Virus record (IMG/VR): IMGVR_UViG_3300029577_000167
Coordinates: 1 to 19,655 of that record
DNA: 19,655 bases
Strand: one strand, 5' to 3'
DNA from: a virus
Lineage: Duplodnaviria > Heunggongvirae > Uroviricota > Caudoviricetes
Made by a program: the position numbers and the translations under genes. Each line of letters opens with the position of its first letter. Within the stretch, counting starts at the first letter, position 1. Under the pieces are notes generated by a model. The model ran no database searches. It was not told where the DNA came from and was given only the letters and a program-made list of their open reading frames with translations. Below are positions 1,111 to 19,655 of the stretch, piece after piece.

Positions 1111-2166
1111 CTATTTGCGAGCCTTTGCCTTGCGCAGCTCTTCGAGAATCGCCAGTTCTTCCTTGCTCAACATGACCATTTCCCCGTCTTTTTCTTCAGG
1201 GGCAACATCGATAATGTCCTCCGGATCATCACCTGGCAAGATATCTTCTGGCTCTTCAGGCGTAGCCATAGATGGCGGCAGTGCCGAACGTAACTTCGGC
1301 CGTCTATAGTGGATGACGAAGTAGACCGAGCTGCCGCGTTTCACTTCAGTGTAATCGAGATAGCCGATCTCTCGCAGCTGCTCCATCGCCTTCCTGACTG
1401 TCGCATTCTGGGTAATGGTGCGGCTGGTTAAGTTAAGTCTGGCGCGTAAGCGAGCCAATGAGATTGGCGCCGGGTCTGGTGGCAAACTTTCAATGAAGGT
1501 GTAGAGCGCCTGCGCGGATTCCTTTCTGGAGAGTTCGTTGATGGCCCGAAGTTGCAAAAGCACCTTTTTGTCGAACTGGTAAAGTTCGAAAATCTTAGGA
1601 TCGGCCTTCAGTTCGACCGTGTCATTCTTGGTACTGTACTTTGCCGTCTGCACAAGGTGCGTAACGTAATACTCTTCAGAGCCTTTGCTGCGGAATGAGA
1701 TGGTGTTTGTGGCGATACGACTTAGAGAGCTGTCCAGGCGCTTACGTAACTTCGCGGACGATCTGGCTGTTGGTATGCCACAAAGTCTGACGAACTCGAC
1801 GAACGGCAACGTGACGGTGTCACCAACAACCTTGTGCTTGGCGAACGCGTGGATGATGCCCACCCATGTTTTGAAATCGTTATCCATATCAAGACGAAGA
1901 CCAGCAATCCTTATATCCTCGTACCCTTCGGCTTTGGCCAGAGACAGCTGTTTGAGTTCAGCGGAGGCGTCCATAGAGACCATTTGCCCCTTTCTACCCC
2001 TGGATGTCGATTTCAGCGTCGGAACGAAGAGACCAAGACGCATCAGAGCAACAGGCTGAACTGTGTTGTTGGTGTTAGGAACTAACGTAACAACTTCGCC
2101 GGTCTTTTTGTCTGTTTCGGAAAATGCTTCGCTTATCGCAATGTTTTTATTGTCGTTTACGCTCAT
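1111..2166 (-). CDS. repA: plasmid replication initiator RepA, RepFIB type (351 aa)
   Basis: Motifs [111 protein letters not shown] match the RepFIB RepA of IncF plasmids as recalled; iterons flank the gene on both sides. Confidence 0.9.
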
Positions 2167-3553: not shown

Positions 3554-3949
3554 AGGCAAACTCATGCTTTTTACCGGGCATAAAATATGGTGTCTTAGAA
3601 AGACACTGAGAGCTTTAGGGATTAATGCATGAGTGAATTTTATTCAAGAGCAGAAACTGTGGCCGACGGATGCGTTTGAAGACGACGCACGCAAACGCCG
3701 TAAATGTCATCTCACAACTTCACCGTCCGTTCTCCTTTTTCATTTCTTGTCATCAGTAAATGACTGCTCTCATAAAATTGCTTGTGACGTTTAGAAATCG
3801 TTGCTGCCCTATCTGATAGGTATTTACTTACTTATTTTTTTGTCATTATCATGTGCCTTTATATTCTTTTGTGTGCCGTGTTGTCTGGGTTGTATGCCTC
3901 TTATGCACGCTTAGAATTTGTATCAAAATAACCACAAAGGAAAAGACAC

Positions 3950-4228
3950 ATGACATTGCCATACGGGGTAATATCAGATCCCCATTATCATCGTTGGGAT
4001 GCTTTTGCGACAACAAACGCTGACGGGCTTAACTCTCGGCTGGAGATCCAACTGGACGCTACGAAGGAGGCGGCCAAAGCGATGAAAGCTGCTGGCTGTA
4101 AGCACATGCTGGTAGCTGGTGATACCTTCCATGTTCGCGGTGCTATATCACCTTCCGTTCTGCATTTCGTGACCGAAACTTACGAGTGGATCATCAAAGA
4201 GTTGGGTCTCAAGGTGGTAAGCTGGTGA
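3950..4228 (+). CDS. metallophosphoesterase N-terminal fragment (SbcD/Mre11-like), probably truncated
   Basis: Motif I GVISDPHYH and motif II LVAGDTFH resemble the calcineurin-like phosphoesterase / SbcD N-terminus (E. coli SbcD: TSDWHLG...IVAGDVFD); only 92 aa, whereas this family is about 400 aa. RBS AAAGGAAAAG upstream. Confidence 0.45.
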   Translation: MTLPYGVISDPHYHRWDAFATTNADGLNSRLEIQLDATKEAAKAMKAAGCKHMLVAGDTFHVRGAISPSVLHFVTETYEWIIKELGLKVVSW

Positions 4229-4262
4229 TACGAAAAAGCAAGTTCGCGTTAACAGTGACGAT

Positions 4263-4664
4263 ATGCGGCGGTTGAACGAGATTTGGCGTGGTATTAAGCC
4301 ACTGATTGACCAAGTTCATTTAGTGTTCTGTGAACTGCCAGTAGGCAGTCAATCTGCTAGAGCGATGGTTTCTTATGGTGGTTGTCTTGGCGTACTGGCG
4401 TGTGTGGATAAGCCACTGATACAGGTCACGCCAAACGAGATTAAGTACTATGTCGGGAATAAGCTGACTACGTCGAAAGAAGAGATCATTCAGTGGGCTA
4501 CGCAGAAGCAGCCAAACGCCCCGTGGTTGCGCCGGAAGCAATCGGGCAAGGAAGTGCTGGTGAATAAAAACGAGCACCTTGCGGACGCTGTCGCATCGAT
4601 TTACACCGGTATGCAAACTGATCAATTCCGTCAGGTTCGCGATGTTCTTGCTGGAATTTTATAA
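4263..4664 (+). CDS. RuvC-like Holliday junction resolvase, N-terminally truncated
   Basis: ELPVGSQSARAMVSYGGCLGVLA and C-terminal NEHLADAVASIY resemble the RuvC core and its catalytic-end motif (ADAADALAIA); the N-terminal GIDPGS-type motif with the first catalytic Asp is absent. Confidence 0.4.
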   Translation: MRRLNEIWRGIKPLIDQVHLVFCELPVGSQSARAMVSYGGCLGVLACVDKPLIQVTPNEIKYYVGNKLTTSKEEIIQWATQKQPNAPWLRRKQSGKEVLVNKNEHLADAVASIYTGMQTDQFRQVRDVLAGIL

Positions 4665-4702
4665 GTTGATAATTGATAGGTAAGTGCTTATCTATTACCA
4701 TG

Positions 4703-4730
4703 AGACCACTATATATAGTGGTCTTTTTAA
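4703..4730 (+). terminator. perfect 22-bp palindrome followed by T-run
   Basis: AGACCACTATA/TATAGTGGTCT (4703-4724) followed by TTTTT (4724-4728); lies 40 bp after the RuvC-like ORF stop. Confidence 0.5.
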
Positions 4731-4902
4731 TTGGGCTACACATAATAAGCATCGTAAAACGTAACGCCCACCGAGCCGCTGCCAGCTGCATGAAGCGCTG
4801 ACAAAGTTCGCTGTCGATTGCACTGGCCCGAGCCAGTTCGAATACCAAACCCACCAGCAATCCCGTACCAACTTCAAAACCCCCGTAGTCGAGTTCAATC
4901 CC

Positions 4903-5358
4903 CAGCTCAAAACCGTAAAAGTATTCAGTGATGGCTCCTGCCTCAAAAATCCGGGCGGGCCGGGCGGTTACGGCATCGTTCTCCAGTATCGAGGCGAAGA
5001 GCGCGAGCTTTCTGAGGGCTTCCACAGCACGACCAACAATCGGATGGAGATGATGGGCGCCCTGATTGCGCTGGAGCGTCTGAAGTACCCCTGCAACGTG
5101 ATCCTGCATTCCGACAGCCAGTATCTTAAAAACGGCATGACGCTCTGGATGAAAGGCTGGAAGCGTAACGGATGGATCACGTCTGAGAAGAAGCCAGTCA
5201 AAAACGTGGATCTCTGGAAACGTCTCGACGCGGCCGCCAGTCGTCATAATGTCCGCTGGAAGTGGGTTAAAGGCCATGCAGGTCATCGCGAGAACGAAAT
5301 GTGTGACCGTCTGGCGAAGATCGCCGCCTATTGTCGAGCGAGTCTCCGCTTTTGTTAA
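4903..5358 (+). CDS. rnhA: ribonuclease HI homologue; initiation codon unresolved
   Basis: ...[23 protein letters not shown]...[18 protein letters not shown]...HSDSQY...[16 protein letters not shown]...[20 protein letters not shown] aligns along the whole length with E. coli RNase HI as recalled. The frame is open from 4765, but no ATG/GTG/TTG exists in frame before 5044 (the codon at the position of the E. coli Met is CAG). Confidence 0.75.
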
Positions 5359-5603
5359 GTCCCCGCTGAATAATCCCCTCACCCGCGGTGAGCAGATGGA
5401 GCTGGCAAGGTGGTTTCTGCGTATCCATGAGCAGATGGAAGTTTTTAAACAGTTGCCGGATCTGCCCATTACAGACGGCCAAATTCAGTGTGCCACTTCA
5501 GTACGGTCGACGATGACAACGACGCAAACCTGCTTTTCGTCAAATCCGAAATCATAAAGTTGCGCAGGGAGAGAGAGAAATCGACGCAGAGCAGGCCCGC
5601 AAT

Positions 5604-18430: not shown

Positions 18431-19318
18431 ATGTATTGTATCAAAAATATGGATGTGAAAATTACGATTCTACAGGTGGAAGTCGCGAACCTGCGTCCGA
18501 ACCCCTGGAATACCAACTCCGTTGGGGCGCAAAACTTCGAAAAACTGAAAGGTTCCATCGAAAAGTTGGGCTTTTTTAAGCCAATTCTGGCGCGAGAGCT
18601 GGACGGCGGCATTTTTGAAATTCTCGGTGGCGAACATCGCTGGCGTGCCGCGATGGAGCAGGGCATTTCAACGGTTCCCGTCATCTCCGTGGGCAAAATT
18701 AACGACCTGGTGGCCAAACAGATGTCCCTCGTCGACAACGAGCGCTACGGCGAAGACGATCAGGTCGCTTTGCAGCGCTTAATCGAAGAAATCCAGTCTG
18801 AAATCGACTACCGGTTGTCCGATATCGCCCCGTATGACGACGAAATGGCGGCAACACTCGCCAAAGCATCCGTTATCGATCTTGAAGCGCTGGAAGCGCT
18901 CTCCCGTGGCGATGACGAGCCGGTCGATGAGGACAAACGCGAGAAAACCGAGCGAGTCGGCGCTGAACACCAGACGATGCGCTTCAAGGTGACGTTTGAT
19001 GCGTCAGATCGGGTCATCGAACAGAAGACTCTCGAAACCCATGAGGTCGTCGAGTTTGAGCTGTCGAGTGTGTTCGACCTGATGGGCGTGCAGCTGCCGT
19101 ACCGCCAGATCATCAAAAACACATGCCCGTGGAGATACCGCGGACCAGAGTGCGGCTACACCGGTCCGTACTTCGACAAAAACAACCAGCAAACCACCAT
19201 GTCAGGAGCGGATTGCTGCACGAAACGTTACGACTCATGCAACGCACGGCGCAACTACTTTGCCAATGGCGTAATCCACTTTGGCGGGTTCATTGGGGCA
19301 ACGCGTTATGGGCAATAG
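18431..19318 (+). CDS. ParB-like N-terminal domain protein with C-terminal lambda gpL-like cysteine module
   Basis: N-terminus LRPNPWNTN...ILARELDGGIFEILGGEHRWRAAMEQGISTVPVI...VDNERYGED fits the ParB/Srx fold (GxxRxxA); C-terminus NTCPWRYRGPECGYTGP...CCTKRYDSC...FGGF parallels the lambda minor tail protein L C-terminus (NTCTWTYRGDECGYSGP...CSKCLSGC...FGGF) as recalled. Start uncertain (18431 or 18449). Confidence 0.75.
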   Translation: MYCIKNMDVKITILQVEVANLRPNPWNTNSVGAQNFEKLKGSIEKLGFFKPILARELDGGIFEILGGEHRWRAAMEQGISTVPVISVGKINDLVAKQMSLVDNERYGEDDQVALQRLIEEIQSEIDYRLSDIAPYDDEMAATLAKASVIDLEALEALSRGDDEPVDEDKREKTERVGAEHQTMRFKVTFDASDRVIEQKTLETHEVVEFELSSVFDLMGVQLPYRQIIKNTCPWRYRGPECGYTGPYFDKNNQQTTMSGADCCTKRYDSCNARRNYFANGVIHFGGFIGATRYGQ

Positions 19319-19655
19319 AGTATTCCCGGAGCTTGGTTCGGACGTTATGCAGGAAATCTATCTGACAGCCATTAAACGTTATTGGTGCTCATACGCACTC
19401 GGTTGCGATTGGCTCACATGGACACACCATCACCGTTAACGCTGCTGGTAACGCGGAAAACACCGTCAAAAACATCGCATTTAACTATATTGTGAGGCTT
19501 GCATGATTAATCTCATTCTTTCTGCTCCAGTAAAAGAAATGACTGAAGCATTTAAGCGAGTATTCGCAAATGCAGACAGGTAATGCTGCCAACTTACTGA
19601 TTTAGTGTATGATGGTGTTTTTGAGGTGCTCCAGTGGCTTCTGTTTCTATCAGCT

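Follow-up and report, generated by a model that had tools for sequence, protein, structure and literature searches.

Paired nucleases of the SbcCD or Mre11-Rad50 type include SbcCD of E. coli, gp46/gp47 of phage T4 and D12/D13 of phage T5. SSU5-like elements are known to bear a block of DNA-metabolism genes (PMC8085198), and the conversion of phage-plasmids into plasmids by gene loss has been documented for P1-like elements (Pfeifer and Rocha 2024, PMC10879196). Here we describe a 19,655-nucleotide stretch of DNA (the window) in which two short open reading frames, ORF1 and ORF2, are very probably the leftover ends of one ~4-kb deletion in an SSU5-like phage-plasmid. This scar is a case of ordinary gene decay within a known phage-plasmid family; no novel type of small protein is involved.

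Origin of the window

DNA similarity to Salmonella phage SSU5 and synteny with it place the window in an SSU5/pHCM2-like phage-plasmid of E. coli. Its DNA identity is 87–90% to SSU5 and 95–99% to many E. coli plasmids of 105–115 kb over most of its length. The backbone includes a conserved 214-aa gene and, farther along, LprI-like, DEAD-helicase and ParB-like genes, together with:

1111–2166, minus strand: repA of the Rep3 type

Rfam and tRNA scans of the window gave no hits. The ParB-like ORF (18431–19318) no longer matches plasmid pYUXYEH3934-1 from position 19015, and an inverted tail-fibre/tail-fibre-assembly fragment follows it at 19377–19507; the stretch 18431–19507 may be another rearrangement.

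The intact cassette in relatives

Four genes occupy the locus in pNT1F34-108k (L001), pYUXYEH3934-1 (L011) and SSU5 (L003). They encode a 361-aa metallophosphoesterase, a 638-aa AAA/SMC-type ATPase, a 248-aa hypothetical protein and a 189-aa protein whose annotation varies (hypothetical, 'RuvC family' or 'RNase H-like'). The ATPase matches AAA_23, SMC_N and Rad50/SbcC models as well as PHROG 77 ('SbcC-like subunit'). The metallophosphoesterase scores 38 bits against Pfam Metallophos (cutoff 21.5) and matches PHROG 100 along its whole length. Both proteins fall far under the NCBIfam SbcD and SbcC equivalog cut-offs (the SbcD-like parent reaches 12.3 bits against PRK10966, cutoff 450), so the pair is better described as SbcCD-like by architecture than as orthologues; the 361-aa parent is classed as SbcD-like by PHROG 100 and gene context only.

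A protein search with ORF1 returned only proteins of at most 158 aa (32 clusters of short SbcD-like N-terminal proteins), so the lengths of SbcD-like homologues were judged from a survey covering 70 IMG/VR loci that the SbcD-like N-terminus had picked up. The full cassette was present in about 60 of the 70, at 56–100% protein identity, and the remainder were mostly cut by contig ends. Two loci (L040 and L077) kept the sbcD-like gene but not the sbcC-like gene, the 248-aa gene or ruvC-like codons 1–146, and L051 showed a rearrangement. The junction described below occurred in this survey only in L020, which is the same contig as L004.

The deletion junction

The retained features around the junction are as follows.

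3772–3949, plus strand: region upstream of the sbcD-like gene, 99% identical to the DNA that precedes the intact gene in L001 and L011
3950–4228, plus strand: ORF1, 92 aa; codons 1–90 of the 361-aa SbcD-like gene plus a junction-encoded Ser-Trp-stop (parental alignment, PHROG)
4219–4220: deletion junction, a 2-bp 'AA' microhomology common to both parents (exact extension of the parental matches)
4221–4262, plus strand: ruvC-like codons 43–56, present as DNA but untranslatable (upstream frame translation)
4263–4664, plus strand: ORF2, 133 aa; residues 57–189 of the 189-aa RuvC-fold resolvase, starting at internal Met57 (parental alignment, PHROG, homologues, model)
4702–4725, plus strand: terminator-like hairpin 3' of the ruvC-like gene, a perfect 11-nt palindrome followed by a T-run, retained from the parent

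ORF1 and ORF2 are 99–100% identical in DNA to parts of longer genes in related plasmids, a resemblance far beyond chance. Alignment to intact relatives, the check suggested with the original prediction, placed the junction at 4219–4220 relative to plasmids of 99% identity. The match to the left parent runs through window position 4220 (L001 position 3198) and that to the right parent starts at 4219 (L001 position 7198), with nothing between. Across the breakpoint, marked by a slash, the sequence is GGTGGTAA/TGCTGGCTGGCAAC in the left parent and GAGACGAA/AGCTGGTGATAC in the right. Compared with L001, 4,001 bp are missing; the figure for L011, with one extra ORF in the deleted interval, is 4,570 bp. 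The deletion removed the 3' three-quarters of the sbcD-like gene, the whole gene for the 638-aa ATPase, the gene for the 248-aa protein and ruvC-like codons 1–41. The left break follows sbcD-like codon 90, four codons short of motif III (GNHD, residues 94–97), and the right break falls in ruvC-like codon 42.

We conclude that one deletion in all likelihood yielded both truncations. The original prediction of a single internal deletion stands in this respect, as the parental matches abut, but it took the two genes to be neighbours, whereas they lie ~3 kb apart in intact relatives. Alternatively, a nested series of deletions, the later ones erasing the earlier junctions, may have produced the same outcome. 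The ancestor had a conserved set of four genes, sbcD-like (361 aa), sbcC/rad50-like (638 aa), a 248-aa gene and ruvC-like (189 aa); on the single-event reading, one illegitimate recombination at the 2-bp microhomology joined sbcD-like codon 90/91 to ruvC-like codon 42, taking out ~4 kb and leaving two pseudogene fragments. Loss of the cassette may have been tolerated because its genes would serve lytic DNA replication and packaging rather than plasmid maintenance.

A 12-nt perfect direct repeat, AGCTGGTGATAC, found at 4114–4125 and 4220–4231, was considered as a recombination site and rejected, both copies being retained. It encodes AGDT both in motif II of the sbcD-like gene and in ruvC-like codons 43–46.

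ORF1 and its SbcD-like parent

ORF1, which opens with MTLPYGVISDPHYH, retains motif I (DPH; D10, H12) and motif II (GDTFH; G57, D58, H61) of a metallophosphoesterase, and both fall inside residues 4–204, the part of the intact parent that aligns to Pfam Metallophos. Motif III (GNHD 94–97 in the parent), H169 and GHYH (200–203) are gone. Three of the seven metal ligands (D10, H12 and D58) remain, and the dinuclear metal site is incomplete. The fragment matches PHROG 100 'SbcD-like subunit' (E 2e-24) and phrog_34949 over positions 1–90 of 243 (E 7e-63); a Pfam search of ORF1 gave no significant hit, Metallophos (PF00149) included. The window holds no SbcC/Rad50-type ATPase partner, next to ORF1 or elsewhere, where relatives have the 638-aa protein.

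Promoter-like sites lie upstream of ORF1 at 3823–3852 and 3840–3867 (consensus scan only), and a Shine-Dalgarno-like AAGGA can be read ~8 nt 5' of its ATG. With promoter, ribosome-binding site and start codon kept, a 92-aa peptide may still be made. We infer that ORF1, which lacks motifs III–V and the partner ATPase, is a functionless pseudogene fragment.

Two features of the upstream region were observed in addition. The ~100 bp before the sbcD-like start (3800–3905) are hypervariable, with 5 of ~31 variant sites falling in 94 bp among relatives that are otherwise 99.9% identical; position 3895 is T in the window and C in six sister loci. Mutations compensating for the deletion were considered and rejected, as the stretch is equally variable in relatives with an intact cassette. 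In addition, a 23-nt imperfect direct repeat, TGATAGGTA..CTTA..TATT, occurs at 3814–3836, in the promoter-like region 5' of ORF1, and with 78% identity at 4674–4696, just 3' of ORF2. The window has no further copies of it (0.01 expected by chance); an operator or promoter element common to the two places is one possibility.

ORF2 and its RuvC-like parent

The ruvC-like frame is shut at the junction by a TAA (4218–4220), and no ATG, GTG or TTG occurs in it until 4263. ORF2 starts there, 34 nt after ORF1, and covers the C-terminal 70% of the 189-aa parent; inspection of the sequence before its ATG revealed no recognisable ribosome-binding site. ORF2 matches PHROG 159 'RuvC-like Holliday junction resolvase' over profile positions 134–259 of 330 (E 5e-39).

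Pfam searches gave no hit, PF02075 included, for ORF2 or for the 189-aa protein, which scored 17 bits against NCBIfam RuvC (cutoff 163), and precomputed PF02075 hits were found on a few distant RuvC-like homologues. A sequence search of the parent against the PDB returned nothing, and a fold search was used instead. The AlphaFold model of the parent, built with 30 homologues, had a mean pLDDT of 92.7. All of its top 14 Foldseek hits in the PDB were RuvC-type Holliday junction resolvases, namely eleven bacterial RuvC chains (from D. radiodurans, T. thermophilus, P. aeruginosa and E. coli), two RuvC chains of Lactococcus phage 67 and one chloroplast resolvase, with E-values down to 7e-10 and target-normalised TM-scores up to 0.78. 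Across the 30 aligned homologues E80, H161 and D164 do not vary, and at least 90% have D11; as read from this alignment, D11-E80-H161-D164 is the RuvC catalytic pattern.

ORF2 keeps E80, H161 and D164 and has lost D11, together with strands β1–β3 (model residues 4–11, 16–25 and 31–40) of the five-stranded RNase H-like core. RuvC-like homologues of 45–100% identity are nearly all 183–204 aa long, mostly 188–191 aa, and the few shorter ones are mostly marked partial or lie on very short contigs. ORF2 is best read as an accidental ORF opened at an internal methionine, a pseudogene fragment that is presumably functionless.

The reading of the two ORFs in the original prediction was borne out in most respects. 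The 92-aa ORF does carry motifs I and II at 3950–4228 on the plus strand and does end before the remaining ones, and the 133-aa ORF is the C-terminal part of a RuvC-like protein, deprived of the N-terminal catalytic aspartate; the ~400 aa expected of an intact SbcD/Mre11-type nuclease proved to be 361 aa in the relatives. In annotation, both 'hypothetical proteins' would become pseudogene fragments, one of an SbcD-like nuclease and the other of a RuvC-like resolvase.

Further deletions in the window

Relative to L011, the window carries three more deletions, each with 2–5 bp of microhomology and all common to the lineage.

199–200: J1, 2-bp microhomology, 1,213 bp lost relative to L011
4842–4846: J3, 5-bp microhomology ATACC, 7,665 bp lost relative to L011
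5331–5332: J4, 2-bp microhomology, 6,614 bp lost relative to L011

J3 removed the genes for a pyrophosphohydrolase, thymidylate synthase, DHFR, an ATPase, a 3'-5' exonuclease and Dam. With the cassette junction (J2), the four deletions fit a phage-plasmid eroding toward a plasmid.

The left side of J1 is a remnant of an IS3-type transposase (rve) gene. Between J3 and J4 lies a 491-bp island (4842–5332) that encodes an RNase H-like core (PHROG 531, E 2e-74) and has neither its own start codon nor its C-terminus; the frame is open from 4786, with the first ATG at 5044. A 323-aa ORF on the minus strand (4498–5469) runs antisense to both the ruvC-like remnant and this island and spans two junctions; it is almost certainly spurious.

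Distribution of the deletion allele

The exact 92-aa and 133-aa proteins occurred on 74 and 73 contigs, respectively, in NCBI, ENA, Logan and IMG assemblies. Six loci retrieved from different samples had the downstream gene order of the window and differed in the IS elements of their flanks. Over 11–14 kb they were 99.85–99.96% identical to the window, and all shared the junction; across seven loci, the 715-bp remnant region contained a single SNP (L010, position 4368). We conclude that the deletion allele marks one recently expanded lineage. An SSU5-like lineage persists in E. coli, in many samples, without the SbcCD-like/RuvC-like cassette and much of the nucleotide-metabolism block. Given this recurrence, the deletion could have been advantageous rather than neutral.

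Independent deletions anchored in the sbcD-like gene

Related loci and proteins P0150–P0179 show many independent truncations or deletions from the 5' third of the sbcD-like gene. At least nine independent deletions begin in this gene and have different right ends; they include the following.

L019: left break at residue 66, right end in DHFR (8-nt homology with a 2-nt slip)
L016: left break at residue 58, right end just upstream of the 3'-5' exonuclease gene
L018: left break at residue 58, right end at L011 position 14134, within the gene for thymidylate synthase; a second deletion follows
L012: left break at residue 94, right end upstream of the pyrophosphohydrolase gene
L015: left break at residue 94, right end upstream of Dam
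L013: left break at residue 94, right end near DUF5983
L002 (cM2a p1): left break at residue 59, right end elsewhere in the plasmid
P0170: left break at residue 55, right end downstream of the ruvC-like gene

The recurrent 'MLAG/K' break was considered as a possible insertion site of an intron, intein or homing endonuclease. This was rejected, as the loci have no insert there and are simply deleted up to different genes downstream.

The left breakpoints fall into two clusters, at gene nucleotides 165–177 (Chi-like GCTGGTAG/GCTGGTGA) and at 271–284, just before motif III. This pattern raises the idea that deletion is site-favoured and not random, the 5' third of the sbcD-like gene acting time and again as the left limit and leaving the replication module untouched, which we consider unlikely. 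Double-strand breaks in the DNA-metabolism block would be resected by RecBCD, resection would stall at Chi or Chi-like sites, just 3' of which the endpoints appear to gather, and the ends would be joined by microhomology, a mechanism that we likewise regard as doubtful. Several observations point in this direction, beginning with the number of independent deletions that leave from this gene for different ends. L016 and L018 share an identical left breakpoint, immediately after GCTGGTGATA and 2 nt past an octamer matching Chi at 7 of 8 positions, and the breakpoints of L002 and P0170 lie a few nucleotides from the same octamer. The gene has only three such 7/8 Chi-like sites on its top strand, all at nucleotides 139–173 and coinciding with the first cluster. 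Three clades break right after GGYAA, before motif III. The 19.7-kb window has 11 copies of the canonical Chi octamer, GCTGGTGG, where dinucleotide shuffles predict 0.55 (positions 405, 4851, 7875, 9971, 10333, 10387, 12484, 12963, 13669, 13838 and 16318), a density about 2.5 times the average of the E. coli chromosome. One of these sites (4851–4858, minus strand) is 5 nt inside J3 and so oriented that RecBCD coming from the deleted side would be halted there.

Against this, neither end of J2 itself has a Chi or 7/8 Chi-like site (AAGGTGG, matching at 5 of 8 positions, comes closest), and the cluster before motif III is not Chi-like by substitution. The alleles were ascertained through proteins of at most 158 aa with the N-terminus preserved; in the less biased IMG/VR sample, deletions are too few to bear on the idea. 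Microhomology of the GGTAA type to gene ends could, moreover, give equal clustering. Were site-favoured deletion true, a Chi-rich backbone would shape the decay of phage-plasmids into plasmids while the replication module is protected; any wider potential of the locus lies only in this apparent clustering of independent endpoints and in the Chi enrichment.

Small proteins, artefact or insertion

The two ORFs might instead be small proteins under selection, for example with a regulatory or dominant-negative action on host SbcCD or RuvC. Their exact sequences do recur on ~74 contigs, ORF1 retains its promoter-like region and ribosome-binding site, and short-form PHROG families exist (phrog_18320, 137 positions; phrog_34949, 243 positions). 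However, all carriers belong to one lineage with ~99.9% identity and an identical junction, and diverged homologues are full length, so the widespread, conserved short homologues that would have spoken against truncation were not found. The other independent truncations leave N-terminal stubs of many lengths (38–135 residues), which argues that no particular length is selected, and ORF2 lacks most of its β-sheet core as well as a recognisable ribosome-binding site. We therefore judge selection on these ORFs very improbable, and decay through deletion the preferred explanation.

That the junction is an assembly or sequencing artefact can be given almost no credence. Searches of PLSDB, complete E. 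coli genomes and the phage collection found no record across it, it was not found in a one-genome-per-species contig set, and the collections searched contain no complete replicon of this lineage; yet it recurs in independent assemblies from different samples, in NCBI (GCA_037638555.1, GCA_005388945.1), ENA, Logan and IMG/VR. An ancestral short arrangement, with 4 kb inserted in the other plasmids, is just as hard to credit, given that the intact cassette occurs in every clade (56–100% protein identity, phage SSU5 included), that both ORFs are incomplete domains of well-defined folds and that the junction lies within coding sequence in two different frames.

Comparison with known systems

The direct relatives of the window are SSU5 (genes SSU5_073 to SSU5_077) and the E. 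coli pHCM2-like phage-plasmids pNT1F34-108k and pYUXYEH3934-1. Both flanks of the junction have 99% DNA identity to the E. coli plasmids and 87% to SSU5, and RepA (Rep3), the 214-aa gene and the downstream terminator are common to the window and these relatives. All four genes (for the metallophosphoesterase, the SbcC-like ATPase, the hypothetical protein and the RNase H-like/RuvC-like protein) are complete in the relatives, whereas only the two outer ends are left in the window.

Like SbcCD and Mre11-Rad50, the parental cassette combines a calcineurin-type phosphoesterase (motifs I–V) with an SMC-like ATPase bearing Rad50/SbcC signatures, although its proteins are short (361 and 638 aa). The window itself has no ATPase gene left, and its phosphoesterase stops short of motif III. 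The 189-aa parent has the fold of RuvC from E. coli (1HJR), T. thermophilus (4EP4/6S16) and Lactococcus phage 67 (4KTW), and a D-E-H-D tetrad like that of the T. thermophilus enzyme, but its sequence similarity is insufficient for Pfam PF02075.

The described conversions of phage-plasmids into plasmids concern the P1 group (PMC10879196), whereas the window belongs to the SSU5 group, and its lineage is known here from the window and partial loci. Like the P1-derived plasmids (PMC10879196), its backbone keeps the replication genes while blocks of phage-function genes are gone.
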